The notes beneath the pieces are model-generated. The model made no database searches, was not told where the DNA came from, and was given only the letters and a program-made list of their open reading frames with translations. Positions 6,637-42,540 of a DNA stretch of 64,000 nt are shown piece by piece. Location of the stretch: the NCBI GenBank assembly GCA_049323195.1, contig JBMOOW010000120.1, forward strand, positions 4,814 through 68,813. Direction: 5' to 3'. Each line of letters opens with the position of its first letter. Position 1 is the stretch's first letter. This DNA comes from Pseudomonadota bacterium. GTDB lineage: Bacteria > Pseudomonadota > Gammaproteobacteria > Xanthomonadales > Xanthomonadaceae. The translations under genes and the position numbers were made by a program.

Positions 6637-6656
6637 GGTAGTCTCCTGGTAGGCCG

Positions 6657-8959: not shown

Positions 8960-9264
8960 TGATTCCCCTGTGCGCTAGGTCAGCGCCCGCTGCGCGAGGG
9001 CCGCGCATTCACGTTCGACATTGTGAAAGTCGCGTGAAAAGCGGCTATTGGAAATCTTCTGGGTCGAGTCAGGAGTTCTCCGCTAGTGCGGCCATGGAGA
9101 GGCGCGGCGCCGCCGTGGCGAAGGATTTCGGTGGGAGGCAAGGCGACGCGAGCCGCCGTGCTCCGTCTTGCGCCGTGCGCAGCGATCACCGCGGCAGGCC
9201 GAAACAAGGGCTGGTATTCGTGCCGCATGCGGGAACGTCGATTCCGGCAGCGTGTGCCGTCTTC

Positions 9265-11481: not shown

Positions 11482-12089
11482 CCAGGCCCCCCTGACTGTC
11501 GATGCCGAGTATTGCCGACCGGTCTGGCTGTTCCTCCACATGGCGTTGACGGATTGCGCTGCGGCCCGGTGCGATGCACGCCCGTTTCATGCGACGTGCA
11601 TGCCGGCGATGCGGCCGGTGCCCAGGTGTTGGGCATGCACGCCGCGGCCCGGTGCAGGTTGTGTACGCGGGCCATGAATCGACCGGCCGCAATGTCGCCT
11701 GCGACGTCGCCCGTGCAAGAAGACGCGCGGACGTCACGCGCAATATCGCGGGTGTTGCACACGGCGTCCCAGGCCTGTTCGATCTATCGGGCCATGTCGT
11801 GCATCATCGGAAGGAGGCGTGGCGTGCGTGATGCGCATCCGTCAGCGTGGGCGGCCGCGGGCGCGTTTCACTTGCCCCGGCCGCGTGCGTCGCGTGGCGG
11901 CGGTCTAGGAAATTTTCCCGGTCGACGGGGCTGCCTTGCGGGGCGGTGTTATGCGGGAAATGCGGACACGCCCACACTTTTTGCGCCTGGGGTCGAAGGC
12001 GACGCTGTGATGTACGCGCGTTCGCACGCGGGCTTTCCGGATCGGATGGATAGACTCGCCATTCCTTCCATGACGCAGGGACGCCTGGC

Positions 12090-27397: not shown

Positions 27398-30313
27398 CTA
27401 GTGCATGCCGTTGCCGGCCACCAGGCCGGGCAGCAGGTCGTCGAAGGACTGCGGCGCGCCCAGCAGGTAGCCCTGCAGTTCGTTGCAGCCGTTCTCGAGC
27501 AGCCAGCGCTCCTGCTGCACCGTTTCCACGCCCTCGGCCACGGTGGCGATGCCCAGCGACCTCGCCAGGCCGATGATCGACTGGCAGATCGCCGCGTCCT
27601 GGGCGTTGCGGTCGAGGTCCTGCACGAAGGAGCGGTCGATCTTGAGCCGGCGGATCGGGAAGCGCTTGAGATAGGCCAGGCTCGAATAGCCCGTGCCGAA
27701 GTCGTCGATGGTGAAGCCCACGCCCAGCGCGTCGAGGCGACGCATCAGCTCGATCGCGCGCTCGGGAGAATGCATCACCACGCTCTCGGTGAGCTCCAGC
27801 TCCAGCGCGCCGGGCGGCAGGTCCAGCCTGCGCACCAGGTGCTCGATGTCGAGGTAGAGGTCGTCGTTGAACTGCGCGGCCGAGACATTCACCGCGATGC
27901 GCAGCCCGGGCAGCCCGGCATCCACCAGGCGTCGGTAATGCGCGGCGGCCTGCTCCAGCACGCGCCGGCCGAGCTCGACGATCAGCCCGCTGTCCTCGCA
28001 GGCGCCGATGAACTCCGCCGGCGGCAGCACGCCGCGCGCCGGGTGCTTCCAGCGCACCAGCGCCTCCAGCCCCTGCGCGCGGCCGTCGGCGTCGTACTGC
28101 GGCTGGAACAGCACGTCGAACTCCTCCCTCTCCAATGCTTCCCGCAGATGGTTGACCAGCTGCAGCCGTTGCGAGGCATGGGCGTCGAACTCGTCGCGGT
28201 AGACCATCGCGCGGTTGCGGCCGCGCACCTTCGCCTGGTACATGGCGAGGTCGGCATGGCGCAGCAGCGTCTGCACGTCGCCGCCGTGCTCGGGGTAGCA
28301 GCAGTAGCCGACGCTGGCGGTGATCGAATGCTGCACCTCGCCCAGCATCACCGGCTCGGCCAGCGCGTCCATCATGCGCCGGATGATGTCCGAAGGCCGC
28401 TCGCCATGCTGCGGCGAGCTCAGCACGGCCACGAATTCGTCGCCGCCGAAACGGCCCACCGAGTCGGTCTCGCGCACCACGCCCGCCAGGCGCCTCGCCA
28501 CTTCCTTGAGCAGCAGGTCGCCGGTGTCGTGGCCCAGGCTGTCGTTGACGATCTTGAAGTCGTCGAGGTCGATGAAGACCACCGCCGTGCCGGTGCCGTA
28601 GCGGTCGGAGGTGTGCAACGCCTGCTGCAGGCGGTCTTCCAGCAGCACGCGGTTGGGCAGGCCGGTGAGCTCGTCGTGGGTGGCGCGGTGTGCCAGCTGC
28701 TCTTCGTAGCGGCGGCGCTCGCTCACGTCGTGCAGGATGCCGACGAAGTGGGTGAGCGCGCCGCGGTCGTCGCGTACCGGCGCGATGTAGACCTCGTTCC
28801 AGAACAGGCTGCCGTCCTTGCGGTAGTTGCGCAGCAGCGTGCGCACCTCGTGCGCCTCGCGGATGCCGCGGCGGATCGCGTCCAGGCCGGGTTGGTCGCG
28901 GTCGCCGCGCTGCAGGAGGCGGCAGTTGCGGCCGGCGATCTCCTCGCGCGTGTAGCCGGTCATCTGCTCGAAGGCGGGATTGACATAGACCACCGGCAGG
29001 TCCGGCGCGCGCGCATCGCTGATCATCACGCCGTTGTCGGTGGATTCGACCGCGCGCCGCAGCAGGCGCAGGTCCGCTTCCTGCTGGCGGCGCTCGGTCT
29101 CGTCGAGCAGTCCGCCCACGATGCGCAGTGCATGGCCGCGCGGGCCCCGCGCGATGAAGCCGCGCTCGCTCACCTGCGCATAGCGCCCGTCACTGCGGCG
29201 CAGGCGATAGGCCTCGCGCCACTCCGACGCGCCCGAGCCCAGGGCCCGCTCGAGATTGGCGGTGACCCGCTCGAGGTCGTCGGGATGCACGAGCATGCTC
29301 CAGCCCGGCAGCGAGAGTTCCACCGCACCGCGGGCATAGCCGAACATCGCGTAGAACGAGTCGCTCCACCACATCGTGCCGGTCTCGAGGTCGAGGTCGT
29401 AGACCGCGTCGCTGGTGGCACGCGCGATCAGCGCGAAACGCTCCTCGCTGCGTTCGCGCTCGGTGACGTCCTGCGCGCCCACCAGCCGCGCCGCGCGCCC
29501 GCCGAAGTGGGTGTCGTGCACCGACAGCGCCAGCCGCACGCGGCGTCCGTCGCGGCACCTGCAGGTGATCACGGCGCCCGAGCGCCAGCGGCTGGCCCGG
29601 GCCTCGGTGCCCTGCGGCTGCTCCTCCTCGGCCAGCAGGCAGTCGATCGGCCTTCCCGCCATCTCGCCCGGGCCGTAGCCGAACAGCCGCTCGGCGGCGG
29701 CGTTGACCGCCAGCAGCGCGCCCTGCGCATGGTCGAAGATCCACATGGGCACGGGGTTGTCGTCGAACAGCGCCCGGTACTGCGCCTCCGCCTCGCGCAG
29801 GCGGCTGCGCATGACGTCGAGCTCGGTCACGTCCTTCATGAAGCCGATCACGCGACGCCCGCCCTGCTGCACCACGCGCTCGCCGGTGGTGACGATGCGC
29901 TGCACGTCGCCGTTCGGTCGCACGATGCGTACCGACACCTCGGGCCGGTGTTCGCCGCCGACCACCGCGGCGATGGAGGCGATGGCGATGCGGCGGTCGT
30001 CGGGGTGCACCGCGGCGATCACGCGGTCCATGTCGACGCCGCTTGCCGGGTCCATGCCGAAGATGCGGTAGCTGGCCGGCGACCACCACATCGCGCCGGT
30101 GTCCACGTTCCAGATGTACTCGCCGATGCCGGCCAGGCGCTCGACCTTCTTCAGGCGCTGCACGCGCCGGCGCAGCCTGGCCAGCTGTCGCAGCAGGATG
30201 CGCACGCGCCGCGTGCGATGGCCCACGCCCGACACCGCGGCCGCGATCGCCGCCACCGCACCTGCGGTGGCGGTGTGCCTGAGCGGCTTGCTCGGCAAGG
30301 ACGGACCGCGCAT
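27398..30313 (-). CDS. multi-PAS GGDEF-EAL signalling protein
   Basis: 971 aa; several PAS/PAC modules, FGGDEFVAVL, EAL domain GLEALVRW, DDFGTGYSSLAYL, EGVE, QGY. Confidence 0.9.
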   Translation of the reverse strand: MRGPSLPSKPLRHTATAGAVAAIAAAVSGVGHRTRRVRILLRQLARLRRRVQRLKKVERLAGIGEYIWNVDTGAMWWSPASYRIFGMDPASGVDMDRVIAAVHPDDRRIAIASIAAVVGGEHRPEVSVRIVRPNGDVQRIVTTGERVVQQGGRRVIGFMKDVTELDVMRSRLREAEAQYRALFDDNPVPMWIFDHAQGALLAVNAAAERLFGYGPGEMAGRPIDCLLAEEEQPQGTEARASRWRSGAVITCRCRDGRRVRLALSVHDTHFGGRAARLVGAQDVTERERSEERFALIARATSDAVYDLDLETGTMWWSDSFYAMFGYARGAVELSLPGWSMLVHPDDLERVTANLERALGSGASEWREAYRLRRSDGRYAQVSERGFIARGPRGHALRIVGGLLDETERRQQEADLRLLRRAVESTDNGVMISDARAPDLPVVYVNPAFEQMTGYTREEIAGRNCRLLQRGDRDQPGLDAIRRGIREAHEVRTLLRNYRKDGSLFWNEVYIAPVRDDRGALTHFVGILHDVSERRRYEEQLAHRATHDELTGLPNRVLLEDRLQQALHTSDRYGTGTAVVFIDLDDFKIVNDSLGHDTGDLLLKEVARRLAGVVRETDSVGRFGGDEFVAVLSSPQHGERPSDIIRRMMDALAEPVMLGEVQHSITASVGYCCYPEHGGDVQTLLRHADLAMYQAKVRGRNRAMVYRDEFDAHASQRLQLVNHLREALEREEFDVLFQPQYDADGRAQGLEALVRWKHPARGVLPPAEFIGACEDSGLIVELGRRVLEQAAAHYRRLVDAGLPGLRIAVNVSAAQFNDDLYLDIEHLVRRLDLPPGALELELTESVVMHSPERAIELMRRLDALGVGFTIDDFGTGYSSLAYLKRFPIRRLKIDRSFVQDLDRNAQDAAICQSIIGLARSLGIATVAEGVETVQQERWLLENGCNELQGYLLGAPQSFDDLLPGLVAGNGMH

Positions 30314-30434
30314 GTGTCCACCTGTGAAGACGTCGGCCGATCATGGCCACAGCCATGTCACGCCCGTCTTCACATCCTGGCGACCAAGCGGCAGTTCTCC
30401 ACCGGCGCATGGCTGCGATGCGCGGCGTATGGGC

Positions 30435-31628
30435 TCAGCCGAACACGTCGGCCGGCACGCGCACCTGCCCTTCCATCAGCACCCGTGCACTGCGGCTCAT
30501 CACCGCCCGGGTCACGCACCACTGGCCGTCGACGCAGCGCACCTCGGCACCGGCGCGCAGCGTGCCGGAGGGATGGCCGAAGGTGACGATCGCGCGTTCG
30601 CCGCCGCCGGCGGCCTGGTTGACCAGGGTGCCCGGCACCGCCGCGGCGGTCGCGATGGCCACGGATGCCGTGCCCATCATGGCGTGGTGCAGCTTGCCCA
30701 TCGACATGGCGCGGGCCAGCAGGTCGACGTCGGCCGCGCGCACGGGCCTGCCGCTGGAGGCGACGTAGTCGCGCGGCGGCGCCACCCAGGCGATCTTCGG
30801 CGTGTGCTGGCGGGTGGCGGCTTTCGCGACGTCGTCGATCAGGCCCATGCGAAGCGCGCCATGGGCGCGGATGGCCTCCAGCCTGCGCAGCAACGCCGCA
30901 TCCTCGTTGATCGCCGGCTGCAGCTCGGTGCCGTCGAAGCCCAGGTCCGCGGCGCGCAGGAAGATCGTCGGGATGCCGGCGGCGATCAGCGTCGCCTCGA
31001 ACGTGCCCACGCACGGCACCTCCAGCGTGTCGACGAGCCGGCCGGTGGGGAACATCGCGCCGCCGTCGCCGTCGCCGTCATCGGAGGGGTCGACGAACTC
31101 CAGCGGGATCTCCGCCGCGGGGAAGGCCACGCCGTCGAGCTCGAAATCGCCGGTTTCCTGCACTTCGCCGTCCGCCATCGGCACGTGCGCCACGATCGTC
31201 TTGCCGATGTTGGCCTGCCAGATGCGCACGGTGCAGTGGCCGTCCCGCGGAACGCGCGAGGGATCGACCAGGCCATGGGCGATCGCGAACGGGCCGACCG
31301 CGGACGACAGGTTGCCGCAGTTGCCGCTCCAGTCCACCAAGGCGCTGTCGATGGCCACCTGGCCGTAGAGGTAGTCGACGTCGTGCCCGGGCACCGTCGA
31401 CTTCGAGATGATCACGCACTTGCTCGTGCTCGAGGTCGCACCGCCCATGCCGTCGGTGTGCTTGCCGTAGGGGTCGGGCGAGCCGATCACGCGCATCAGC
31501 AGTGCATCGCGCGCAGGGCCGGGCACGCGGACGGGCTCCGGCAGGTCCTCGAGCCGGAAGAACACGCCCTTGGACGTGCCTCCGCGCATGTAGGTGGCGG
31601 GGATGCGGAGCTGGGGGGTGTGCGTCAT
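30435..31628 (-). CDS. prpF: 2-methylaconitate cis-trans isomerase PrpF
   Basis: 397 aa; IPATYMRGGTSKGVFF, SKCVIIS, NCGNLSSAVGPFA family pattern. Confidence 0.9.
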   Translation of the reverse strand: MTHTPQLRIPATYMRGGTSKGVFFRLEDLPEPVRVPGPARDALLMRVIGSPDPYGKHTDGMGGATSSTSKCVIISKSTVPGHDVDYLYGQVAIDSALVDWSGNCGNLSSAVGPFAIAHGLVDPSRVPRDGHCTVRIWQANIGKTIVAHVPMADGEVQETGDFELDGVAFPAAEIPLEFVDPSDDGDGDGGAMFPTGRLVDTLEVPCVGTFEATLIAAGIPTIFLRAADLGFDGTELQPAINEDAALLRRLEAIRAHGALRMGLIDDVAKAATRQHTPKIAWVAPPRDYVASSGRPVRAADVDLLARAMSMGKLHHAMMGTASVAIATAAAVPGTLVNQAAGGGERAIVTFGHPSGTLRAGAEVRCVDGQWCVTRAVMSRSARVLMEGQVRVPADVFG

Positions 31629-31679
31629 GATCGGGTCGGCAGGTGTTGGCGGTGGTGCGATGGCGGATGACGCGGGCGG

Positions 31680-32243
31680 TTACCGCTGCGCCGCGCGGAA
31701 TTTAGGCAGGTCGGCGGGCGCACACAGGCGCTGCCGAAGAAGGTCGAGCGTGCGGTGATGGTCCGAGCGCAACTGCTCGTTCCGACCGAGCGAGGGATGC
31801 TTGAACAGCCCGTGCTCCCACAGCCCGGCAGCCGCTTCCGCGAGCGACTCGTCGCGCCATTCGAAGCCGAGCCAGGCCTCTGTCCGGCGGCCGTTGATCG
31901 AGGCCAGCAGGCTGCGGTCGCGCGCCTGGCCGAAGCTGAAGCCGGACGCGAACGCCGCGGCTTCGGCGTCCACCCGCGGCCCCTCGATGCCGAAGTACGC
32001 GCAGAGCGAAGCGAACTGCAGGGCGGCGCGCTCGTGCAGCGCCTTCAGGCCCGCGGCGTTGCCGTTGAGCACGAGCGTGGCGCCGGTGGACGCGTTGAGC
32101 ACCAGCACGAAGGGCTTGCGGTTCCAGAAGTCGACATCCGCATGCCACTCGCCGAGCGGGTTCAGCTGCGGCGAAGGCTCCGGCAGCTTCGGAGACTGGC
32201 GCAGGCGCTTGAGCAGCTTGGCCGTGCAGCGCAGGACGGTCAT
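31680..32243 (-). CDS. hypothetical protein (possibly DUF6933-like), last gene of the defence operon
   Basis: 187 aa; start forms ATGA with the stop of the Res-like gene; MTVLRCTAKLLKRL...LGEWHADVDFWNRKPFVLVLNASTGATLVL. Confidence 0.65.
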   Translation of the reverse strand: MTVLRCTAKLLKRLRQSPKLPEPSPQLNPLGEWHADVDFWNRKPFVLVLNASTGATLVLNGNAAGLKALHERAALQFASLCAYFGIEGPRVDAEAAAFASGFSFGQARDRSLLASINGRRTEAWLGFEWRDESLAEAAAGLWEHGLFKHPSLGRNEQLRSDHHRTLDLLRQRLCAPADLPKFRAAQR

Positions 32244-35200
32244 GGGGCGGGCCCCGCGGCGAGGATCGCCGCGATCACGTGCGCGTAATCGGCCTGCGGG
32301 AACAGGATGTGCCGGGCCGCGAAGTCGGTCTCAGTCCACGGCACGCCCCAGCGGTCGCATAGTTCCGCGAGCGGCGTTTCCGAAACGATCCACGCATCGA
32401 CTTCGATGTCGCTCCGTCCGGCAGCCGCCAGCCCGGGCGCGACGTAATCGCGCAGGCGCGTGTGGAAGTCGGTCACCTTGTCGCCGCCGCGGCTCTCGTT
32501 GAGCAGCCCATGCGGCTCGACGAAGACGACGCGGTGGCGCCGTCCGTCGGTCGTCCACAGGATGAAGTCCGGAAAGAAACCTTCGCTCTCGTAAAAGCCC
32601 AGCCCGTGCCCGCGCGACTGATTGCGCAGCAGGTAGAGGCGCTGACCGGCGGGCAGCCGTCCAGCCTCGCAGTGCACCCGGAGCGCATCGACGAAGTCGT
32701 GTTCCGAGCGGCTAAGACCCTTGGGCGAAACGCTCACCCCCTCCACGCTCTCGTCTTCGGCGACGAGCAGGGGCTGATAGAGATGCCGGTCGAAACCGGA
32801 CCGTGCGATCTGCGGGAAGTCGCCTGCCGCGGGCGGGCGACCGGCCGCGAGGTCAGCCGCAAGGCGCTGCAGCTCGGCGATCAACGGCTGCCGGTCCACC
32901 CGCACCACGACGCGATACGGGCGGTACTGCGCCTGCGCTTCGCCGACCCGGGTCACGCGCATGTGCTGCGTCTCGAACTGCTTCTGCTGGCGGCGGTAAT
33001 CACGCTCGAACCAGGTTTCCAGCGCCTCGAACACGGCTTCCTGCAGGCGGCCCAGCGCGGCGTCATCCGCAGGCTTGAAGAAATCATCGTCTGCGATGAA
33101 CTGGCAATGCGACGCGACCAGCTCGCGCAGTTGCACCGGCCGCAGCACGACGTTAGTCCAGCCCCGCACGCGCTTTTTCTCGAGCAGACGGAAGTAGGCG
33201 CGCGTCCAGTCCACCAGTCCGAGCAGGCTTGGCGGAAGGTCGCGCGGGGGCGCTCGCTCGCCCGTGCCACCTTCCAGGCCCGCGCTGCCACCCCGGTAGT
33301 GGGAAAAGCGCGACGTCGCATCGTGCCGCACCGGCATTCTCGCCTGCAGGCCTAGGCCCACCACGCGCTCGGTTCGGAACCGCGATTCGCCCGGTGGCTC
33401 GAAATAGGGCAGGTCGGCGACGCCCGCGTCGTGCGCATCCAGGCGCCAGAGCGGCAGCTCGATCACGACGGACGGCAGGTCGTCCACGCCCTCGCGCAGC
33501 AGCGCCTCGCGGAACGTCCGCATGTACGAGGCATGCACCGAGAACACATTGAGCTGCTCGAGCCAGCGGATGTCCGGCGGATGCTCGATGCCGGGCAGTG
33601 CGGAAGAGCGCTTCAGGCTGCGGCCCAGGCCCAGCAGGCGCACGCCACGCCCGAACAGCTGGATGATCTGCGCGCCTTCCTTCTTGCCGACGTTGAGCAA
33701 GCCGAGGCTGCTGACGCGCCAGCTGCTCCAGCCTTCGATGAACTTCTTCGCGCCGATCAGCAGGTGGATGCCCGAATCGCGCCGGTCGATCTCCCGGAAC
33801 AGCGAGCCGCCGACCACGTCGTCGAGCACGGTCACGCCGTCGGCCTTCAGCAGCTTCTCGAGCGCGCTGGTGTCGCCCACGTTGACCACGCCGAAAGGCC
33901 GGGCGGCGCCTTCCGCACGCAGCGCCATTTCGCCGTCCGCGTCCCGGATGGGCTGCACCTGCAGGCGGCTGGCAGCGCCTTCGACGTGGAAGACGCGCGA
34001 GAGCACATCCGCCAGCAGCGCGTCGAAGTCGGCGTTCTCGGGATAGCGGCCGCGCAGCCAGTCCAGGGCCTCGTGAAGCGCGGCACGCCCGTCCTCGCCG
34101 CGGAACAGCCGCGCATCGTGCAGCAGGCGCTTGACCAGCCGCGCCGATTCGCCGCGGCGGTTGGTCAGGAACGCATCGAGGAAATGCAGCACGGCGGCGA
34201 TGTCCGACCCGCCCGTCTTGCCGCTGTCCACCCGCGCGCCCACGTACACCCACAACGGCCTCTCGATGCCGTACGGCCGCCAGTCCGTGCCGTCGGCATG
34301 CACGCGCAGCTGCTGGTAGTAGCTGAGCAGGTTGGCGGCCATCAGCCGGCGGCGAATGTCCTCGTCCTCGCTGTCCACGTTCAGCAGGCGGAAGTCCTTG
34401 CCGAAGCCGTCGCCGTGGAAGTAGCGGTACGAGTAGTCAAAGAGGATGGCCTTACCGTACTCGGCCAGCAGGTCCTCATTGCCTGCCGCGTTGAGCGCCT
34501 GCCCGAAGGTGGCGCTGTACTCGAAGGTGAAGCCGCTCGCGCCCAGCGCGTCGCGGTAGCCCTTCCACACGGTGCCACCGCTGCCCTTGTGGCCCTCGTC
34601 CACGAAGACGAGATTCGGCACGTCGCGACGGACCAGCTGCTCGACGGGCACACGGACGCCGCCATCCTTCTTTTCGTCCACCAGCTTGGTGATCTCGATC
34701 ACCTGTACCGCGTCGCTGGCGCCCACCAGCGGGGGGCGCTCCGGGTCAAAGCGCTCGATCGCGATCCCCGAGGCGCGCGCCTCGGCGATGTGCTGGGCCG
34801 ACAGGCCTTCGTTGGGCGTGATCAGCAGGATGTTGTTGACCGGGCCCGGGAAGTAATGCCGGTACTGCATCACGTGGAAGTGCAGCAGCAGGGTCTTGCC
34901 GCTGCCGGTGGCCATCCAGAAGGCCAGCTTGCGCAAATCGTCCCGGCCGAAGGGCCGCGCACCGGCGAAATCGGCCTGCGTCGCGGCGAAGCGGTTCAGG
35001 CTGTCGAGCAGGGCGCCGGGTGCGTTGGCGAGCCGGTCCAGGTAAAGCTCCGTGAACAGCAGCGCGAGCACCTGGAAGTAGCGCAGCTGCAGCGGCTGCG
35101 CGGCGCGGGCGCGGTTGATGCGCTCGAGGTGGGCGCGGATGTTGGCGTCGAACCGCAGAAGGTCTTTCTGCAGGGCCGCGTCGCGCACGTAGCCGATCAG

Positions 35201-35425
35201 TGCCCGGGTGACGTGGAACACGCCGTCGACGCCCACGCCCTCCTGCACGGCGGCACAGCGCGCCAACAGGGTGCGGTTGTCCGGCTGGCCGAGCAGGTGC
35301 AGCGCCCAGCGCAGCAGCACGAGGCGCTGCTCCAATCGCGCGGTCATGAGCGATGCCGAGCCCGCCGGGTTGGTGGCGGCAGGCGCGGTGGCCGTTGCTG
35401 TTGCGGCGCGTCTTGCGCGCGGCAT
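32240..35425 (-). CDS. type III restriction Res-like SF2 helicase with C-terminal PD-(D/E)xK-like nuclease module
   Basis: ATG at 35425 (TGATG with HepT stop); motif I WMATGSGKT, II FVDEGHKG, III YSATFG, EGWSS, VI QLFGRGVRL; C-terminus FFPDFILW...VVFVEPHG. Confidence 0.82.
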   Translation of the reverse strand: MPRARRAATATATAPAATNPAGSASLMTARLEQRLVLLRWALHLLGQPDNRTLLARCAAVQEGVGVDGVFHVTRALIGYVRDAALQKDLLRFDANIRAHLERINRARAAQPLQLRYFQVLALLFTELYLDRLANAPGALLDSLNRFAATQADFAGARPFGRDDLRKLAFWMATGSGKTLLLHFHVMQYRHYFPGPVNNILLITPNEGLSAQHIAEARASGIAIERFDPERPPLVGASDAVQVIEITKLVDEKKDGGVRVPVEQLVRRDVPNLVFVDEGHKGSGGTVWKGYRDALGASGFTFEYSATFGQALNAAGNEDLLAEYGKAILFDYSYRYFHGDGFGKDFRLLNVDSEDEDIRRRLMAANLLSYYQQLRVHADGTDWRPYGIERPLWVYVGARVDSGKTGGSDIAAVLHFLDAFLTNRRGESARLVKRLLHDARLFRGEDGRAALHEALDWLRGRYPENADFDALLADVLSRVFHVEGAASRLQVQPIRDADGEMALRAEGAARPFGVVNVGDTSALEKLLKADGVTVLDDVVGGSLFREIDRRDSGIHLLIGAKKFIEGWSSWRVSSLGLLNVGKKEGAQIIQLFGRGVRLLGLGRSLKRSSALPGIEHPPDIRWLEQLNVFSVHASYMRTFREALLREGVDDLPSVVIELPLWRLDAHDAGVADLPYFEPPGESRFRTERVVGLGLQARMPVRHDATSRFSHYRGGSAGLEGGTGERAPPRDLPPSLLGLVDWTRAYFRLLEKKRVRGWTNVVLRPVQLRELVASHCQFIADDDFFKPADDAALGRLQEAVFEALETWFERDYRRQQKQFETQHMRVTRVGEAQAQYRPYRVVVRVDRQPLIAELQRLAADLAAGRPPAAGDFPQIARSGFDRHLYQPLLVAEDESVEGVSVSPKGLSRSEHDFVDALRVHCEAGRLPAGQRLYLLRNQSRGHGLGFYESEGFFPDFILWTTDGRRHRVVFVEPHGLLNESRGGDKVTDFHTRLRDYVAPGLAAAGRSDIEVDAWIVSETPLAELCDRWGVPWTETDFAARHILFPQADYAHVIAAILAAGPAP

Positions 35426-35769
35426 CAGCCCGCCCCCTGGAGCAGGGCATCGACCTGCGCACGCAAGCCCGGCAAACGCGTCTGCACGATGTCCCAGACC
35501 AATGCATCGTCCACGTCCGCATAGCCGTGGATCAGGATGTTGCGGAAGGCGATGATGCGACGATGGTCCCCGATGCGCGCCAGCAGCGCGGGGTCGCGCC
35601 GGCCGAGCTGGGCAAGCGCCTCGCCGATGATCTCGAACTGGCGCTCCACCGCCGCGCGCAGCATCGCGTCGCGTTCGTAGTCTTCCCACTGCTTCCCCGC
35701 CACGAAGTCGTGCAGGCGCTGCGCGGCGCTCTGCACGTCGAACAGGTACTTGGCGGATTCAAGCCGCAT
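35425..35769 (-). CDS. hepT: HepT-like (DUF86/HEPN) toxin
   Basis: ATG at 35769; MRLESAKYLFDV...AVERQFEIIGEA...IIAFRNILIHGYADVD (Rx4H motif); overlaps the MNT gene by 11 nt. Confidence 0.82.
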   Translation of the reverse strand: MRLESAKYLFDVQSAAQRLHDFVAGKQWEDYERDAMLRAAVERQFEIIGEALAQLGRRDPALLARIGDHRRIIAFRNILIHGYADVDDALVWDIVQTRLPGLRAQVDALLQGAG

Positions 35770-36079
35770 AGAGCGCCTCGCGCTGGCCTTCGATGGCCTG
35801 CCGGAAGAAGGGATTGCGGATGGCGCGCTCGACCACGAGATCCACGGGGGCATCGAACAGCTGTTCGAGGTCCTCGCGCAGGCCGAAGTAGGCCTCGGCG
35901 TACGCGCCCGGGGGCAGCGGCTCGAAGTCCACCAGCAGGTCCACGTCGCTGCCCGGATGGCCTTCGCCGCGAGCGAGCGAGCCGAACAGCTCCAGCCGTC
36001 GCACGTGGCGGCGGCGGCAGACCGTGGCGATGGCCTCGCGCTGGGCGGTGACACGGGCACGCAGGTCGAGGGCGGACAT
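35759..36079 (-). CDS. mntA: MNT-type nucleotidyltransferase antitoxin
   Basis: 106 aa; LELFGSLARGEGHPGSDVDLLVDF minimal nucleotidyltransferase motif. Confidence 0.82.
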   Translation of the reverse strand: MSALDLRARVTAQREAIATVCRRRHVRRLELFGSLARGEGHPGSDVDLLVDFEPLPPGAYAEAYFGLREDLEQLFDAPVDLVVERAIRNPFFRQAIEGQREALYAA

Positions 36080-36083
36080 AGCT

Positions 36084-38912
36084 TCAGTGCACCGGCGCGA
36101 ACATGCACGCGTGGAAGACAGGGTCGAGCGACTGCGCGCCGGACAGGGCGGAATCGCCGTTGACGTAGATCACGGTGGCGTCCTCGAACGGCGCCTGTGC
36201 GGCGAGCCAGTCCCGCTCGGCGGCGAAGTCGTCCGTGGTCCAGCCGTCGATGTCGCGCCAGAGCACGGCGGTGGGTGCGTCGTCGGCGCGGGTGCGGCCC
36301 AGAACCAGCACGTAGCGCCGGCCGTCGCGGTGCAGCACGCGGCGACGGCGGACGATCAGGCCGATGAGGTAGTTGAAGGTCTCGACTAGGTCCACCGCCT
36401 GCTCGCGCGACTCGCGGCCGTCGTGCACACGCAGCGTGTAGTCGAACGGGCGCTCGAGCTTCTCCACGTCGAGCAGGCTGGGGCTGCCGGCGGTCTCCAC
36501 GTCGAGCCAGTACCCCAGGCGATAGCTCTCCGGAACCGCGTCGAAGTCGAAGCCCGGCTGCGTGTCCTCGGCCTTGCGGACGCGGAGGTTGGAGAGGGTG
36601 TCTTCGTAGGATTCGAGGCGGAGGTACTTGAATACCCCACCGCGGGGGAAGCCGTACTTTTCCGAAATCCCGTAACGGTCGCCAAACAAGACCTTCTTTA
36701 GGCGTGGCAGCGCATATCGGTCAAAATTCTCACCCATCTCGATTGCCACCCACCTGCGCCCCGACTTGTAGGCGACTGCAGCGGTCGTTCCCGAGCCGAC
36801 GAACGCATCAGCTACGTAATCCCCGACATTCGAGGAGGACGTAATCAGCCTTTCGACGAGGGCTTCATTCTTCTGCGTCAGCGATTGGTCACCGACCTTT
36901 TCCTTGCTGAAGCTGACGATTTGAATTGAATTGAGCGCGTCGATCTCCGAACAATTCCATGTGTCTTCAAGCGGATAGCCAGCCCCGTCCGGCGCATTGC
37001 CATCACGCCTCACATATCCCGGAGGATAGGGGATGTATTGTTTGTTGAAGAATACATTTCCGCTCTTGCCGTACTGGTAGATCGTGTCATGGTTGCGGAT
37101 GAACTTGTTTGCTGTGCTCTTGTACCCCGATATCCAGCCGATACGCCAGATGATCTCTGTGATGTAGGTGTATCGCTCGTCGAGCAATAGCTTCAGCCGC
37201 TCTTTCTCATAGTAGTCGATGTGCGCGTAAAGCGTGCCACTGGGCGACAGCAATTCGTAAAGCGCGGCCGTGCATCCCTGCATCATCGAGAGCCAGCTCG
37301 AATGCCGATATGCATCTCGATAGTAGAAGTCACCGAGCCCCGTGTTGAAAGGCGGATCGATATATACGCACTGTACATCGGCAAGATAACGTGCCGAAAC
37401 TAGGTTCAGCGCCTGCCAGTTGTCGGCGCGGATCATCACGCCGCTGGTACTGTTTTCGTCGTCTCCAATGCTTTCGAGCAGTTCCAATTCCAGGTCCGTG
37501 GGGAGGTGCGCAGTGTCGAGTACCAGAAACGGCTGACTCCGCAAGAACTCCGCCGTCACCTTCTCCTTCCACCCCGGCTTCCCGCCCTCTGCCTTCACTT
37601 CGTCGATCGCGAAGAGCTTCTTCCACTCCGCCTTCTGCGCCTTGCCGCCCTCGGTGGTGTTGAGGATCTCCACGAGCCGCTCGGTGAGCCCCGCACGTTC
37701 GACGTGATCGAGGGTGATGCACCAGTGGCACTCGGTCACGAACTTGCGCTTTTCGTACAGGCGCTTCTGGAAGTCCTCGACGCGGGCGAGGAAGTCGATG
37801 ATGGTGGTGGCCACCTCGCGCAGGCAGGCCAGTGTCTGCAGCCAGGCGCGCGCGGGTTGTTCGCCGGCCAGTAGCGTGTCGAGCTTCAGGACTTCGGCCT
37901 TGAGCCAGTAGTCGAGCTCGCGGGTGAGGAAGCCGCGCAGATCCTTGTGGATGAAAAAGTCGCTGGTGTTGCGCCGGGTGTAGCGGCGCAGGTGTTGGGC
38001 GAGCACGGTGCGCGGGGTGTCGCCGCTGCCGGGCGCTTCGGCCTCCAGGGCCGCCTTGAGCGCGGGCTGGGCCTTTACAGGTTTCGCGGCGAGCAGCTTC
38101 TTCTCGACGTCGGCGTTGATGGCGTCCTGCGCGTTTCGCGCCGGCAGCGTGGTCGCCTCGGTGGACGTGGCCGCGCGCCATTGCACGGGAACGGTCAACG
38201 TGCGTGTGGCGGCGTCGAGTTGCGCAGCGGCCGTGTCGGCGAAGAAGTAGCGCTTTTCGGCGGACTTGGTGTTGTCGCGGTCGGTCTCGGCCCGCTGCAG
38301 GCGGAACTCCACGTGCCAGGCGTCCGCACCCGTTCCGGCACGGAAACGGTAGTCGGTGAAATGCTCGCCGGTCTTGACGTAGTACTGGTCGCGGTTGGCC
38401 CAGTGCAGCATCACTTCCTGCCCGTTGTAGGGCAGGGCATAGGCGTCCTCAGCGCCGTAGCGGCGCAGGCTGAGGAAGTCGCCGTCCTCGTAGTAGCGGC
38501 GGAAGAAGTCGTAGAGGCGGTTGTAGATCTCGGCTTCGCGGTCCTGCGGCTGCCCGGCGGCCTGACGGGCTTCCCACTGCTCGCGGTACTCGCGGGCGGT
38601 GCGGCCGCGGATGTCGTCGCGCAGGCGGCCGTCGCCGTCAATGATGCTCTCGCCCTCGTATTCCTCGCGCAGCTCGGCGGCGAGTTCCGCCAGGCGCCTG
38701 GCCTGCCCGTCCACCTGCGCGGCGGCACCGCCCGCCAGTGCCTGCTTCACGGCGGCGGGAAGGCGCGTGGTGAGCCAGTCCTCGAACAGGGCGCGACGCT
38801 CGTTGAGGATGCGGTAGATGCCGAAGTCGAGGTCGGCGCAGTCGTACTGGAAGAGCTCGCGCAGCAGCGTCTGGAACTTCTGCAGGGCGGGCGAGGCGGG
38901 CTCAAGGGTCAT
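36084..38912 (-). CDS. large beta-class (Mod-like) N6-adenine/N4-cytosine DNA methyltransferase
   Basis: 942 aa; motif IV VYIDPPFNTG precedes motif I AFVGSGTTAAVA; IRADNWQALNLV pre-motif typical of type III Mod; ~450-aa N-terminal extension with DLDFGIYRILN. Confidence 0.88.
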   Translation of the reverse strand: MTLEPASPALQKFQTLLRELFQYDCADLDFGIYRILNERRALFEDWLTTRLPAAVKQALAGGAAAQVDGQARRLAELAAELREEYEGESIIDGDGRLRDDIRGRTAREYREQWEARQAAGQPQDREAEIYNRLYDFFRRYYEDGDFLSLRRYGAEDAYALPYNGQEVMLHWANRDQYYVKTGEHFTDYRFRAGTGADAWHVEFRLQRAETDRDNTKSAEKRYFFADTAAAQLDAATRTLTVPVQWRAATSTEATTLPARNAQDAINADVEKKLLAAKPVKAQPALKAALEAEAPGSGDTPRTVLAQHLRRYTRRNTSDFFIHKDLRGFLTRELDYWLKAEVLKLDTLLAGEQPARAWLQTLACLREVATTIIDFLARVEDFQKRLYEKRKFVTECHWCITLDHVERAGLTERLVEILNTTEGGKAQKAEWKKLFAIDEVKAEGGKPGWKEKVTAEFLRSQPFLVLDTAHLPTDLELELLESIGDDENSTSGVMIRADNWQALNLVSARYLADVQCVYIDPPFNTGLGDFYYRDAYRHSSWLSMMQGCTAALYELLSPSGTLYAHIDYYEKERLKLLLDERYTYITEIIWRIGWISGYKSTANKFIRNHDTIYQYGKSGNVFFNKQYIPYPPGYVRRDGNAPDGAGYPLEDTWNCSEIDALNSIQIVSFSKEKVGDQSLTQKNEALVERLITSSSNVGDYVADAFVGSGTTAAVAYKSGRRWVAIEMGENFDRYALPRLKKVLFGDRYGISEKYGFPRGGVFKYLRLESYEDTLSNLRVRKAEDTQPGFDFDAVPESYRLGYWLDVETAGSPSLLDVEKLERPFDYTLRVHDGRESREQAVDLVETFNYLIGLIVRRRRVLHRDGRRYVLVLGRTRADDAPTAVLWRDIDGWTTDDFAAERDWLAAQAPFEDATVIYVNGDSALSGAQSLDPVFHACMFAPVH

Positions 38913-39283
38913 TCGGTGGGGTCCGGAGAGACGTGCAGTGCGTCGGCGGGCGTGTCGTTCAGGGCGTCGAGATCCCGGGAGGCGTGCCAGATCCGGACGA
39001 CGCTGATATGGGTAGGCTGATCCACGTAGTAGACGAGATACCTGTCGAAGCCGCGTACGTGTAGAAGGCGCAGCGGCGCCGGCAGGACCGGGATCATCCG
39101 AGCATGGCGCGCGGAGCCGATTTCGGGGAAGGCGGCGATGTGCGCGAGCGTGGTGTCCAGCGCGTCGAGGAATCGCTCACCCAGCGCCAGTCCGCCGTGC
39201 AGGGCGTAGCGCCAAGCGGTTTCCGAGGCGTCCGCTTCGGCCTGCGGCCGCCACTCAATTGCCTTCACGAGCCCAGCGGTCAC
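38909..39283 (-). CDS. parE: ParE/RelE-family toxin
   Basis: KAIEWRPQAEADASE...FPEIGSARH...LRLLHVRGFDRYLVYYVDQPTHISVVRIWHASRD; GTG starts at 39283 (AAGGA 5 nt upstream) or 39268; stop forms ATGA with the methyltransferase start. Confidence 0.78.
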   Translation of the reverse strand: MTAGLVKAIEWRPQAEADASETAWRYALHGGLALGERFLDALDTTLAHIAAFPEIGSARHARMIPVLPAPLRLLHVRGFDRYLVYYVDQPTHISVVRIWHASRDLDALNDTPADALHVSPDPTE

Positions 39284-39512
39284 GCAGATCCTTGCGCATG
39301 CGGTCGAACCTGGCCGCGTCCACGGGAACGGCCAGGCCGGACGCCAGTCCCTCGGCGATGGCCTGCCGCAACGCCTCCTCGGCCTTGGCGCGCTGCCGCT
39401 GGCGCAGCAGGTCGCGCATGTAGTCCGACGTGCTGGCGAAACCGCCCTCGCGGACTTCCTCGTCCACGAACTGCTTGAGCGGATCGGGGAGGGAGATGTT
39501 CATGGTGGCCAT
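39255..39512 (-). CDS. parD: ParD-family (RHH) antitoxin
   Basis: 85 aa; MNISLPDPLKQFVDEEVREGGFASTSDYMRDLLRQ. Confidence 0.78.
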   Translation of the reverse strand: MATMNISLPDPLKQFVDEEVREGGFASTSDYMRDLLRQRQRAKAEEALRQAIAEGLASGLAVPVDAARFDRMRKDLRDRWAREGN

Positions 39513-39523
39513 AGCCGGGCCTT

Positions 39524-39542
39524 GATGGCAAAGATTGCCATC
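39524..39542. promoter_or_regulatory. perfect 8-3-8 palindrome just upstream of parD (candidate ParD operator)
   Basis: GATGGCAA-AGA-TTGCCATC, 12-30 nt upstream of the parD ATG; a TTGATA hexamer lies immediately upstream on the coding strand. Confidence 0.4.
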
Positions 39543-39704
39543 GGAGTATCAATGCGGCGCAGTGGGCGGGCAAGTGCTTTGGCTGGGGATGACCGCTTCG
39601 TTACCCCTCACCGCAACCCCTCCCCCCGGGGCGAGAGGGGCTCCCGGTTCAGCATGAGCCTGCTGCTCACTGGCAGCGGGCCTTCGCTCCCGGGGAGGGC
39701 TTGA

Positions 39705-42320
39705 TCAGGCCGCGTTGCGGTTGCCTTCGAGGAAATCGTTCGCGAAGCGCTGCAGCACGCCGCCAGCCTCGTAGATCGAGACCTCCTCGGCGGTGTCCAG
39801 GCGGCAGGTCACGGGCACTTCGACGGTCTCTCCACTGCGGCGGTGGATCAGCAGCGTGAGCGTGGCGCGCGGGGTGCGCTCGCCGACGACGTCGAAGGTC
39901 TCGGTGCCGTCGATGCCCAGCGTGAGGCGGCTGGTGCCGGGCTGGAACTCCAGCGGCAGCACGCCCATGCCGATCAGGTTGGTGCGGTGGATGCGCTCGA
40001 AGCCCTCGGCGACGATCGCCTCCACGCCCGCGAGCCGCACGCCCTTGGCCGCCCAGTCGCGCGAGCTGCCTTGGCCGTAGTCGGCGCCGGCGATGATGAT
40101 CAGCGGCTGCCGGCGCTCCATGTAGGTCTCGATCGCCTCCCACATGCGCGTCACCGTGCCATCAGGTTCGATGCGCGCGAGCGAGCCCTGGCGCACTGTG
40201 CCGTCCTCGGCGCGCACCATCTCGTTGAGCAGCTTCGGGTTGGCGAAGGTGGCGCGCTGCGCGGTGAGGTGGTCGCCGCGGTGCGTGGCGTAGGAATTGA
40301 AGTCCTCCTCCGGCACGCCCATCTTCGCGAGGTACTCGCCCGCGGCGGAGTTCGCGAGGATCGCGTTGCTGGGCGAGAGGTGGTCGGTGGTGATGTTGTC
40401 GCCCAGCACCGCCAGCGGGCGCATGCCGCGCAGCGTGCGCTCGCCGGCCAGCGCGCCTTCCCAGTACGGCGGGCGGCGGATGTAGGTCGACATCGGGCGC
40501 CAGTCGTAGAGCGGCTTCACCGGCTCGCCGTGCTCCACGCGCAGCTTGAACATGGGCTCGTAGACGCGGCGGAACTGCTCGGGGCGCACGTGCTCGCGCA
40601 CGATGGCATCGATCTCCTCGTCCGTCGGCCACAGGTCCTTGAGCGTGAGCGCGCGGCCGTCGCTGCCGGTGCCCAGCACGTCCTTCTCGATGTCGAAGCG
40701 GATGGTGCCGGCGATGGCATAGGCCACGACCAGCGGCGGCGAGGCCAGGAAGGCCTGCTTGGCATAGGGGTGGATGCGGCCATCGAAGTTGCGGTTGCCG
40801 CTGAGCACCGCGACGGCATACAGGTCGCGCTCGATGATCTCCTGCTGGATGGCCGGGTCCAGCGCGCCGCTCATGCCGTTGCAGGTGGTGCAGGCGAAGC
40901 CGACGATGCCGAAGCCCAGCGCTTCCAGGTGCGGCAGCAGGCCCGCCTCCTGCAGGTAGAGCTCCACGGCCTTCGAGCCCGGCGCGAGCGAGGTCTTGAC
41001 CCAGGGCTTGCGCACCAGGCCGAGCTCGTTCGCCTTCTTCGCAAGCAGCCCCGCCGCGATGACGTTGCGAGGGTTGGAGGTGTTCGTGCAGCTGGTGATC
41101 GCAGCGATGATCACCGCGCCGTCGGGCATCAAGCCACTGGCTTCCTGCGCGCGCGCGGCCTCGAGGTCCCGGGCGATGCCGCGCTCGGCCAGCGCCGTGG
41201 TCGGCAGGCGGCGGTGCGGGTTGGACGGGCCGGCCATGTTGCGCACGACGGTCGAGAGGTCGAAGGTCAGCGTGCGCTCGTACTGGGCGTCCACCAGCGC
41301 ATCGGCCCAGAGCCCGGCCGCCTTCGCATAGGTTTCGACCAGCTGCACCTGCTGCTCGTCGCGGCCGGTCAGGCGCAGGTAGTCGAGGGTGTTGTCGTCG
41401 ATGAAGAACATCGCCGCGGTGGCGCCGTACTCGGGCGCCATGTTGGAGATCGTCGCGCGATCGCCCAGCGTGAGCGCGCGCGCGCCCTCGCCACGGAACT
41501 CCAGGTAGGCGCCGACGACCTTCGACTGTCGCAGGAACTCGGTGAGCGCGAGCACGATGTCGGTGGCGGTGATGCCCGGCTGCGGACGGCCGGTGAGCTC
41601 CACGCCGACGATCTCGGGCAGGCGCATCCAGGAGGCGCGGCCGAGCATCACGCTCTCGGCTTCCAGGCCGCCCACGCCCACGGCGATAACGCCCAGCGCG
41701 TCCACGTGCGGCGTGTGCGAGTCGGTGCCCACGCAGGTATCCGGGAAGGCCACGCCGTCGGCCACGTAGACCACCGGCGACATCTTCTCCAGATTGATCT
41801 GGTGCATGATCCCGTTGCCCGGCGGGATCACGTCGACGTTCCTGAAGGCGTGCTTGGTCCACTCGATGAAGTGGAAGCGATCCTCGTTGCGGCGCTCCTC
41901 GATCGCGCGGTTCCTGGCGAACGCATCCGGATCGAAGCCACCGCATTCGACCGCGAGCGAGTGGTCGACGATCAGCTGCGTAGGCACCACCGGATTGATC
42001 TGCGCCGGGTCGCCGCCACGCTCGGCGATGGCGTCGCGCAGGCCGGCGAGGTCAACCAGCGCGGTCTGGCCGAGGATGTCGTGGCAGACCACGCGTGCGG
42101 GGAACCAGGGGAAGTCGAGGTCGCGGCGGCGCTCGACGAGCTGGCGCAGGTAATCGCCGATGCGGTGCGGCTCGGCACGGCGCACGATGTTCTCGGCATG
42201 CACGCGCGAGGTGTAGGGCAGGCCGTCCCATGCGCCCGGCTGGATCGCCTCCACCGCCTCGCGGGCGTCGAACCAGTGCAGCGAGGTGCCGGGAAGGGGC
42301 TTGCGGTGGGCGGTGTTCAT
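39705..42320 (-). CDS. acnD: Fe/S-dependent 2-methylisocitrate dehydratase AcnD (aconitase family)
   Basis: ATG at 42320; 871 aa; aconitase motifs GTDSHT, ITSCTNTSNP, CTTCNG, DNITTDHLSPS, GQGSSRDWAAKG. Confidence 0.93.
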   Translation of the reverse strand: MNTAHRKPLPGTSLHWFDAREAVEAIQPGAWDGLPYTSRVHAENIVRRAEPHRIGDYLRQLVERRRDLDFPWFPARVVCHDILGQTALVDLAGLRDAIAERGGDPAQINPVVPTQLIVDHSLAVECGGFDPDAFARNRAIEERRNEDRFHFIEWTKHAFRNVDVIPPGNGIMHQINLEKMSPVVYVADGVAFPDTCVGTDSHTPHVDALGVIAVGVGGLEAESVMLGRASWMRLPEIVGVELTGRPQPGITATDIVLALTEFLRQSKVVGAYLEFRGEGARALTLGDRATISNMAPEYGATAAMFFIDDNTLDYLRLTGRDEQQVQLVETYAKAAGLWADALVDAQYERTLTFDLSTVVRNMAGPSNPHRRLPTTALAERGIARDLEAARAQEASGLMPDGAVIIAAITSCTNTSNPRNVIAAGLLAKKANELGLVRKPWVKTSLAPGSKAVELYLQEAGLLPHLEALGFGIVGFACTTCNGMSGALDPAIQQEIIERDLYAVAVLSGNRNFDGRIHPYAKQAFLASPPLVVAYAIAGTIRFDIEKDVLGTGSDGRALTLKDLWPTDEEIDAIVREHVRPEQFRRVYEPMFKLRVEHGEPVKPLYDWRPMSTYIRRPPYWEGALAGERTLRGMRPLAVLGDNITTDHLSPSNAILANSAAGEYLAKMGVPEEDFNSYATHRGDHLTAQRATFANPKLLNEMVRAEDGTVRQGSLARIEPDGTVTRMWEAIETYMERRQPLIIIAGADYGQGSSRDWAAKGVRLAGVEAIVAEGFERIHRTNLIGMGVLPLEFQPGTSRLTLGIDGTETFDVVGERTPRATLTLLIHRRSGETVEVPVTCRLDTAEEVSIYEAGGVLQRFANDFLEGNRNAA

Positions 42321-42540
42321 CGTCGGATCCACGGTCGGCGCACGTCCGGCACGGGGCCGACGCGGCAGGGTGCGAGAAGGGCCGGGCGGGCCCGGCGGCA
42401 TCGGCCAATTATCCCGCACCTCGGCAGGACGGGCTCAGGCGCATGCGGGCGCGGGCCGGCGGGGATTCAGCGCCCCACGCCGGCTGCCGGGGGCCGTGCC
42501 ATGATCGGCGCGCGGCGGGGAGGCCGCGGGGAGGGATGCG

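Follow-up and report, generated by a model that had tools for sequence, protein, structure and literature searches.

The 64,000-nucleotide (nt) stretch analysed here (the window: positions 4,814 to 68,813 of contig JBMOOW010000120.1, assembly GCA_049323195.1, from a member of the Xanthomonadaceae) carries seven minus-strand genes, ParD, ParE, Mod, MNT, HepT, Res and DUF6933, between the metabolic genes acnD and prpF. This block is most likely a horizontally acquired, single-operon defence cassette occupying a recombination hotspot between acnD and prpF. Restriction by Mod and Res is probably backed by an abortive or addiction response from HepT, all under a ParD-controlled promoter that also feeds prpF, so that the cassette would provide layered defence together with addiction. 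The uncertainty lies mostly in the functional coupling of the parts and not in the parts list.

The operon extends from 31680 to 39512 on the minus strand of a window with about 70% G+C. Its genes, in order of transcription, are:

39255-39512, minus strand: parD, a ribbon-helix-helix (RHH) antitoxin of 85 amino acids (aa); Pfam ParD_antitoxin and RHH_1, NCBIfam TIGR02606 at 57.1 bits (cut-off 46.2).
38909-39283, minus strand: parE, a toxin of 124 aa from GTG 39283 or 119 aa from GTG 39268; Pfam ParE_toxin, 1.1e-12, over the full model length.
36084-38912, minus strand: mod, a predicted beta-class N6/N4 DNA methyltransferase (MTase) of 942 aa with a 480-aa N-terminal extension; Pfam N6_N4_Mtase 1.4e-37, PADLOC MTase_III PDLC03646 5e-136.
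35759-36079, minus strand: MNT, an MntA-like minimal nucleotidyltransferase antitoxin of 106 aa; Pfam NTP_transf_2 1.9e-15, PADLOC PDC-S09 6.6e-32.
35425-35769, minus strand: HepT, a HEPN ribonuclease (RNase) toxin of 114 aa; Pfam HepT-like 5.1e-22.
32240-35425, minus strand: res, a superfamily 2 (SF2) helicase of 1061 aa with a C-terminal PD...ExH motif; Pfam ResIII 5.4e-6, PADLOC REase_III PDLC03654 4.5e-128.
31680-32243, minus strand: the DUF6933 tail gene, 187 aa; Pfam DUF6933 (PF22016) 4e-20, PADLOC PDC-S63 9.6e-6.

A preliminary description of the window had listed seven genes between acnD and prpF, and the open reading frames and their translations confirm them. The junctions that it gave are correct to the base when read off the sequence. 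The parD and parE genes overlap by 29 nt or, with the alternative parE start codon, by 14 nt, parE and mod share an ATGA (38909-38912), and a 4-nt spacer separates mod from MNT (36080-36083). MNT and HepT overlap by 11 nt, HepT and res share TGATG (35423-35427), and res and the DUF6933 gene share ATGA (32240-32243). All seven family assignments are backed by profile searches with Pfam, PADLOC and NCBIfam, and because the matches are strong the genes are real and not chance open reading frames. Catalytic motifs are intact in all six recognisable proteins as judged by motif reading and family profiles. Four-base overlaps are common in tight operons of high-G+C genomes. The translational coupling seen here is ordinary; the unusual point is the presence of two toxin-antitoxin (TA) pairs in one operon.

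The genes that flank the block are:

39705-42320, minus strand: acnD, the left-flank host gene, with an ATG start; 96% identical to AcnD of locus L086.
30435-31628, minus strand: prpF, the right-flank host gene; 100% identical to PrpF of a Pseudomonadota metagenome-assembled genome.

Comparison loci are designated by L and a number. PrpF of the window is 90% identical to PrpF of Lysobacter sp. N42 and 87% identical to that of Cognatilysobacter segetis, which places the source in the Lysobacteraceae. The same seven genes occupy the same site in Lysobacter sp. N42 (L086, assembly GCA_004344885.1) and in metagenome contig L001. In two metagenome contigs whose PrpF is 90% identical (L088, L089) the acnD stop and the prpF start are 16 nt apart, the spacer is 68 nt in a third (L090), and in C. 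segetis (L087) a single small AHSA1-like gene lies between the two genes. Since filled sites (the window, L001, L086) and empty sites (L088, L089, L090) coexist in relatives, the block is a polymorphic insertion among genomes with about 90% identical PrpF. The empty sites thus bear out the initial proposal that acnD and prpF are neighbours in close relatives and that the 8 kb between them were inserted. G+C content at third codon positions is 0.81-0.90 in the island genes versus 0.93-0.94 in the flanking genes.

The last 13 or so nucleotides before prpF resemble the ancestral acnD-prpF spacer of the empty sites L088 and L089; the insert therefore lies immediately behind the acnD stop codon. 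When filled and empty junctions were compared directly, no target-site duplication or terminal repeats were seen at the island ends, and a search for boundary repeats returned only chance-level repeats, as is typical in high-G+C DNA. An integrative-element model was dropped, as the island contains no tRNA, integrase or transposase. A G+C-rich hairpin that resembles a repetitive extragenic palindromic (REP) element, CCCCTCTC...GAGGGGTTGCGGTGAGGGG (39604-39643, minus strand), lies in the acnD-parD spacer. It occurs once in the window, is present in all three filled sites and is missing from the empty sites. The acnD-parD spacer was not called as a terminator, its folding being no better than that of shuffled sequence (z -1.1).

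The gap between acnD and prpF is a recurrent landing site for defence cassettes, which were found there in nine loci and in differing states. It can be empty, hold the seven-gene island, hold ParD-ParE with a truncated DUF6933 gene (L137), or hold DUF6933 alone (L108, L130). In a further state a canonical Type III restriction-modification (R-M) system with DUF6933 adjoins prpF (L127).

The second TA pair of the operon, MNT-HepT, is placed between the two R-M genes. MNT carries the motif GS-x10-DxD from residue 33 (GSLARGEGHPGSDVD), and HepT carries RX4HXY as RNILIHGY at residues 76-83, with the motif tyrosine present. With both motifs, the MNT gene first and the genes overlapping, the pair has the sequence characters of HepT/MntA type VII systems. 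Among the matches listed by an alignment scan of genome contigs with Res were 80 loci, spread over many phyla, whose Res proteins share about 42% identity with that of the window; close Res relatives were absent among the matches listed and were reached by single look-ups instead. In all, the relatives of Res number more than 6,700. In 75 of the 80 loci fetched, which are all the classifiable ones, Res is preceded by a long, homologous Mod. When the content of the gap between Mod and Res was classified in these 75 loci, Mod and Res were adjacent in 44, MNT-HepT lay between them in 18 (alone in 13, with other genes in 5), a single member of the pair was detected in 3 and other cargo was present in 10. 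MNT matches outside the gap numbered only two in all the flanking DNA of the fetched loci.

The other cargo includes Fic/DOC, an OLD-family ATPase-TOPRIM protein, a DndB-like protein with a D12 methylase, GNAT and DUF433. Given this variety, the junction is a general slot for toxin or abortive-infection genes. Embedded MNT-HepT pairs from distant phyla are at a median of 51% identity among themselves. Their identity correlates with that of Res (Mantel r 0.28, p 0.017, without the window, L001 and L086), a weak but significant relationship; a first value of r 0.68 was inflated by these three near-identical loci. The convergent filling of this slot is the best argument for a functional link between the pair and restriction.

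Mod and Res resemble a Type III system. The N6_N4_Mtase domain of Mod spans residues 513-731, its motifs are in beta-class order with DPPF at residue 519, FVGSG at 704 and a variable block between, and the EcoP15I Mod is matched at 2.5e-10. Res scores 26.8 bits against the ResIII model (gathering score 22.5) and has GSGKT at residue 174, DEGH at 276 and PD-x16-EPH at 952-972, all invariant in the family alignment. When searched as isolated regions, the N-terminal part of Mod, the Mod C-terminus and the Res C-terminus gave no Pfam match. We file the pair as putatively Type III-like: the domain order and the ATPase motifs are those of Type III, and the C-terminal nuclease is a candidate.

Comparison of Mod between close relatives points to an exchange within the gene:

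36572-37481, minus strand: swapped MTase/target-recognition block in mod, about residues 477-780, coinciding with a G+C trough at 36500-37500 (0.53-0.58 versus about 0.70 around it).

This block holds the catalytic motifs and the recognition domain. It is roughly 25-45% identical, with insertions and deletions, between the window and L086, where the flanking parts of Mod are 85-100% identical. By this comparison a foreign MTase and target-recognition block has evidently been swapped into a conserved Mod scaffold between close relatives, and a different recognition sequence is therefore predicted. Diversifying selection on an R-M system would be expected to favour such exchanges. The island is also mosaic. 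In L001, ParD, ParE and Mod are 99%, 95% and 92% identical to the window, while MNT, HepT, Res and DUF6933 are 97-99% identical to L086, with the breakpoint near the mod/MNT junction. The window and L086 share only 50% identity in ParE, as against 92% in Res. The block swap and the mosaicism are signs that the system is probably active and evolving.

Three features of the spacers bear on expression of the operon:

39545-39573, minus strand: candidate sigma-70-type promoter, TTGCCC-17 nt-GATACT, matching 8/12 consensus positions.
39524-39542, minus strand: perfect palindrome GATGGCAAtctTTGCCATC, close behind the -10 element; a probable ParD (RHH) operator, judging from known autoregulation.
31629-31679, minus strand: 51-nt spacer from the DUF6933 stop to the prpF start, without a terminator.

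Promoter-like hexamers TTGCCY-17 nt-GATACT are common to the window, L001 and L086, and the palindrome is identical in all three; the diverged L137 has one that resembles it but is imperfect, ATGGCAAaaaTTGCCAA. A consensus promoter scan of 30000-43000 gave no match, the proposed promoter being under the scan threshold. The TIGR02606 and ParE_toxin matches, the gene overlap and the conserved palindrome at the promoter place ParDE among type II systems, in which ParD would bind the operator. RHH antitoxins repress their own promoters. Because ParD is an RHH protein and the palindrome is conserved at the promoter, we infer that the whole operon is under ParD or ParDE control. At the other end, a sequence scan of the interval from the island to prpF found nothing resembling a terminator or a promoter, and in L108 the DUF6933 gene overlaps prpF by ATGA. 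Since neither kind of site marks the end of the island, read-through into prpF is likely, and the earlier suggestion that prpF may depend on it is plausible.

These observations suggest the following mode of action. Mod would mark host DNA at its own recognition site, and a Mod-Res complex, using ATP, would find and cut unmarked incoming DNA. MNT would hold the HepT RNase inactive by nucleotidylating the tyrosine of its RX4HXY motif. If phage infection or loss of the operon stopped the resupply of MNT, HepT would become active and arrest translation, which would serve both as a second, abortive line of defence and as a penalty on operon loss. ParD would bind the palindrome at the promoter and set transcription of the whole operon, with ParE as a second addiction function. 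As the cassette splits the acnD-prpF operon, prpF would be transcribed by read-through from acnD, from the island promoter or from both.

Several results weigh against this reading. Restriction, methylation, toxicity and defence by this cassette are predictions from sequence. The candidate promoter, with its 8/12 consensus positions, is weak. MNT and HepT score 45.6 and 42.7 bits against the NCBIfam MntA and HepT models and do not reach the equivalog cut-off of 60 bits; they belong to the Pfam families and not to the curated NCBIfam equivalog groups. The Res C-terminus has no Pfam domain, its nuclease-like motif is PD...ExH, with histidine where lysine is expected, and not PD...ExK, and no relative of Res was found in the PDB by sequence or profile search. 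In loci whose Res is 60-76% identical, MNT-HepT is missing and Mod is coupled directly to Res. Embedded pairs of distant family members share only 32-40% identity with the window MNT-HepT, whose MNT and HepT are 61% and 75% identical to the pair in the Type I R-M locus L098. Because the L098 pair is nearer, MNT-HepT may be a module with local mobility, as opposed to a co-evolved R-M partner. In this lineage the pair seems to have been captured locally, into a slot filled independently elsewhere.

Such results raise the possibility that the TA pairs are selfish addiction modules that hitch-hike in permissive operon junctions, have no functional link to restriction and only hinder deletion or replacement of the cassette. 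The occurrence of the same MNT-HepT lineage in a Type I locus and the close Res relatives without the pair fit this idea, and the divergence of ParE relative to Res between the window and L086 indicates that TA genes turn over independently. TA genes and the tail gene also outlast loss of the R-M genes. In L137 (3617-4423) the order is acnD, ParD, ParE, truncated DUF6933 and prpF, with the R-M genes gone, and other decayed cassettes (L093 9391-10560, L094/L095, L101/L104) consist of an antitoxin-ParE pair and DUF6933, some keeping HsdS or MNT 3' remnants. Against hitch-hiking, precisely the junction between Mod and Res serves as the slot in at least 21 of the 75 loci, across phyla, the embedded pairs group coherently and their divergence follows that of Res, and an embedded toxin aids defence in the tested analogues PrrC and RRDM. 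We consider hitch-hiking possible, if somewhat unlikely.

The peculiarities of Res bear on a different question, namely whether Mod and Res form a cleaving Type III enzyme at all. The Mod/Res family occurs on haloarchaeal plasmids, and in E. coli, Klebsiella and relatives it follows a DrmD-like SNF2 gene on IncF plasmids. The pair might be a methylation-dependent helicase system that excludes DNA in the manner of DISARM or BREX without classical restriction. The association with the SNF2 gene on enterobacterial plasmids would suit such a system, as would the 480-aa Mod N-terminal region and the Res C-terminal region without Pfam match, the absence of a PDB relative of Res and the histidine in place of lysine. 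These points are countered by the PADLOC Type III models, which fit at 1e-128 or better and, in the case of the plasmid homologues, over their full length (PDLC03646 and PDLC03654). The mod-res order, the beta-class motif order, the Walker A motif and DEGH are likewise all as in Type III, and no SNF2, DUF1998 or PLD gene lies beside the pair in the window or in most loci. An exclusion system is therefore, in our judgement, distinctly unlikely, and restriction by a Type III-like enzyme is retained as the preferred reading.

Three further loci of the Mod/Res family were noted. On the E. coli plasmid pEC316_2 (L142, NZ_CP018955.1 29496-39016) a DrmD-like SNF2 gene (PADLOC DrmD 1e-168) is followed by Mod/Res and then by insertion sequence IS26. 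In L082 (9165-13187) a 76%-identical Res is split over three frames; an IS3-family transposase lies next to it, and NERD and NYN genes are close by. The Mod gene of L084 (2056-6336) is broken by an IS3-family element.

The tail gene links the island to a wider set of cassettes. Its product matches PF22016 at 72.7 bits (gathering score 27), and PDC-S63, matched at 9.6e-6 by the window protein, is matched at 2.4e-16 by a remote homologue in L139. Only 183 relatives of DUF6933 could be detected, nearly all of them from Xanthomonadales/Lysobacterales; a search of plasmids found no homologue, and a literature search found no paper on the family. A scan of metagenomes for DUF6933 added 49 loci. The gene caller, which is based on G+C at third codon positions, misplaced some metagenome starts (for example in L127), and such loci were used only with profile or Pfam support.

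Of the Type I R-M operons, 13, 11 of them metagenomic, end in a DUF6933 gene joined to its predecessor by a stop/start overlap. The other two, in Luteimonas lutimaris (L091, 428-8564) and Frateuria soli (L092, 715-8585), have the order hutU, Phd-ParE, HsdR, antitoxin-ParE, HsdM, HsdS and DUF6933, with a 4-nt overlap at the end; this is the same architecture as that of the window island. One DUF6933-tailed Type I operon (L110) is headed by a window-like ParDE. DUF6933 also ends the long Type III-like R-M system in 3 loci, and in L137 it overlaps ParE. In L127 (about 6300-11828) it closes a canonical Type III R-M system right before prpF, and in L140 (4649-10060) acnD, a 555-aa Mod, a RhuM-family gene and an 877-aa Res, again canonical Type III, are followed by a DUF6933 remnant. 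It follows AbiEi-AbiEii with a 4-nt overlap in L126 (8213-10603), near metK and with an antitoxin-ParE pair upstream, and stands 27 nt after a NERD-domain gene in L118 (9059-10879). The DUF6933 open reading frame is longer in L118 and L134 (292 and 358 aa). Besides acnD|prpF, the cassette sites are after hutU (L091-L093) and near metK (L126, L131). Judging from these sequences, a head TA pair, a cargo with a nested toxin, a DUF6933 tail and reused sites are a general format in Lysobacterales.

In L098, MNT-HepT lies between HsdS and DUF6933 (2250-3060) and is flanked by a duplicated HsdS 3' end. One copy of GGCCAGGTGCGCGTGGC precedes the true HsdS stop, and a second lies just before the DUF6933 ATG.

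An AlphaFold model of DUF6933 built from 112 sequences has a predicted local distance difference test score (pLDDT) of 90.9 and a predicted template modelling score (pTM) of 0.85. It replaced an earlier, poor model from 19 sequences (pLDDT 75.7), with no change in the result of the fold search. Foldseek searches of the PDB and BFVD with the model returned no match at E <= 1e-3. The top matches in both libraries were all retroviral integrase catalytic cores, with E values of 1.4e-3 or worse, TM-scores of 0.3-0.45 and root-mean-square deviations of 7-9 A. In the predicted structure the invariant D36 is on core strand 1 and the invariant D109 just after strand 4; the third acidic residue expected of an RNase H-like or DDE core was not identified in the model. 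The likeness to integrase cores may serve as a lead; it is not a result.

Taken further, this lead would make the island one of an undescribed class of exchangeable cassettes, each with a head TA pair under its autoregulated promoter and a DUF6933 tail, in which DUF6933 is an RNase H- or integrase-core-like enzyme or else a homology anchor for swapping cargo at fixed sites. The terminal position of DUF6933 in Type I, long and canonical Type III, AbiE, ParE and NERD contexts, the fixed sites at acnD|prpF, hutU and metK, and the duplicated HsdS 3' end around the L098 insert are consistent with such exchange. So are the lack of an integrase or transposase in the island and the confident model, with integrase cores as its sole Foldseek neighbours and with the modelled placement of D36 and D109. 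The structural matches fall short of E 1e-3 and superpose poorly, however, and the protein has only 187 aa and no recognisable DNA-binding domain. The island ends have neither target-site duplication nor terminal repeats, homologues were not found on plasmids, and ordinary homologous recombination between conserved flanks fits the data equally well. We regard this alternative as unlikely. If it did hold, DUF6933 would mark an integron-like exchange system for immune genes (Type I, two Type III families, AbiE, NERD) without a recognisable integrase, which is itself an improbable outcome.

The reading of the island as a layered defence cassette has precedents. At least 16 HEPN clades are linked to R-M systems (PMC3710099), and a coupling of immunity and suicide has been proposed (PMC3632139). 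PrrC is nested in EcoprrI and has been proposed to act as a back-up RNase when restriction is disabled (PMC3710099, PMC12707154). As in that Type Ic system, the gene for a HEPN-superfamily RNase lies between R-M genes in the window. PrrC differs in being a single ABC-ATPase-HEPN protein that is silenced by the R-M enzyme, whereas the window HepT has its own enzymatic antitoxin.

The RRDM island of enteropathogenic E. coli is composed of RptR, a Type I R-M system with an embedded DarTG2 and an M48 peptidase, seven open reading frames in all. It protects E. coli by up to 7 logs, RptR binds palindromes at the -10 element, and the embedding site was noted as a likely recombination hotspot (PMC12255303). 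The window operon likewise has seven open reading frames in one direction, a small promoter-proximal repressor gene, a predicted palindromic operator at the putative promoter, an R-M system split by a TA pair with an enzymatic antitoxin, and a trailing accessory gene. The parts differ. RRDM combines Type I R-M with DarT/DarG, which act through DNA ADP-ribosylation, and here a Type III-like system is combined with HepT/MNT, a predicted RNase and nucleotidyltransferase. The head of RRDM is a dedicated repressor and its tail an M48 peptidase, whereas the window cassette has a complete ParDE head and a DUF6933 tail. RRDM is flanked by insertion sequences; the window cassette lies inside a metabolic operon and has no mobility genes. 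Protection has been shown for RRDM and is a prediction for the window cassette.

The individual modules also have known counterparts. The MNT-HepT pair resembles the type VII system SO_3166/SO_3165 of Shewanella oneidensis in its MNT-then-HepT order, the overlap, the GS...DxD and RX4HXY motifs and the Pfam families. It differs in not being free-standing, as it lies inside an R-M operon without its own promoter, and in its sub-cut-off NCBIfam scores. The canonical Type III enzymes EcoP1I and EcoP15I share with the window a Mod placed before Res, a beta-class Mod with an internal recognition domain and an SF2 ATPase Res with a C-terminal PD...E motif, and the PADLOC Type III models are matched. 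In contrast to these enzymes, the window Mod is about 300 aa longer, with an N-terminal half to which no domain is assigned; the window Res has no sequence similarity to EcoP15I Res in PDB searches and has histidine as the third residue of its nuclease motif; and the long Mod/Res family is sometimes tied to a DrmD-like SNF2 gene. Core-gene-flanked defence hotspots resemble the acnD|prpF site in having a fixed position between conserved genes and content that varies between strains. The window hotspot differs in lying inside an operon, where a metabolic gene would have its expression linked to the cassette.

Under the term guilt-by-embedding, a systematic search has been made for embedded genes as defence candidates (bioRxiv 10.1101/2024.01.29.577857). 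MNT and the DUF6933 family correspond to two such candidates, PDC-S09 and PDC-S63. The text of that study treats embedding in Hma, BREX, DISARM and Type I R-M systems and leaves PDC-S09, PDC-S63, MNT and nucleotidyltransferase unmentioned, so that it does not treat a Mod-MNT-HepT-Res arrangement (bioRxiv 10.1101/2024.01.29.577857). Our literature search found no paper describing HepT/MntA inside a Type III-like operon. The preliminary description had regarded the island as an undescribed system. This holds in that our search turned up no named composite system made of all seven genes, and is narrowed by the facts that nesting of TA or toxin genes in R-M operons is already known, that MNT-HepT between Mod and Res recurs in many phyla, and that the protein listed as unknown is DUF6933, related to PDC-S63. 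Most novel are the format of cassettes that end in DUF6933 and the repeated use of the acnD|prpF site.

Layered immunity, in which an abortive toxin backs up restriction under the control of one promoter, is a topical subject in phage defence and has so far rested on few worked examples, mainly PrrC and RRDM. The window locus adds a Type III-like case with a nested RNase toxin that would be enzymatically neutralised. The R-M family to which it belongs has a slot refilled across phyla, so that the functional link is testable on natural variants with and without the insert, and the cultured strain Lysobacter sp. N42, which carries the island, offers a test host. The locus is also a case in which a metabolic gene, prpF, may have been made dependent on a defence cassette. 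DUF6933 closing cassettes at reused sites provides a lead on the exchange of immune genes without visible mobile-element genes.

The gene upstream of acnD (469 aa, 42541-43950) is divergent and is neither prpB nor prpC; acnD-prpF is therefore a separate two-gene unit in this clade. Downstream of prpF is a gene of 971 aa (27398-30313), whose counterpart in relatives is a PAS/GGDEF protein.

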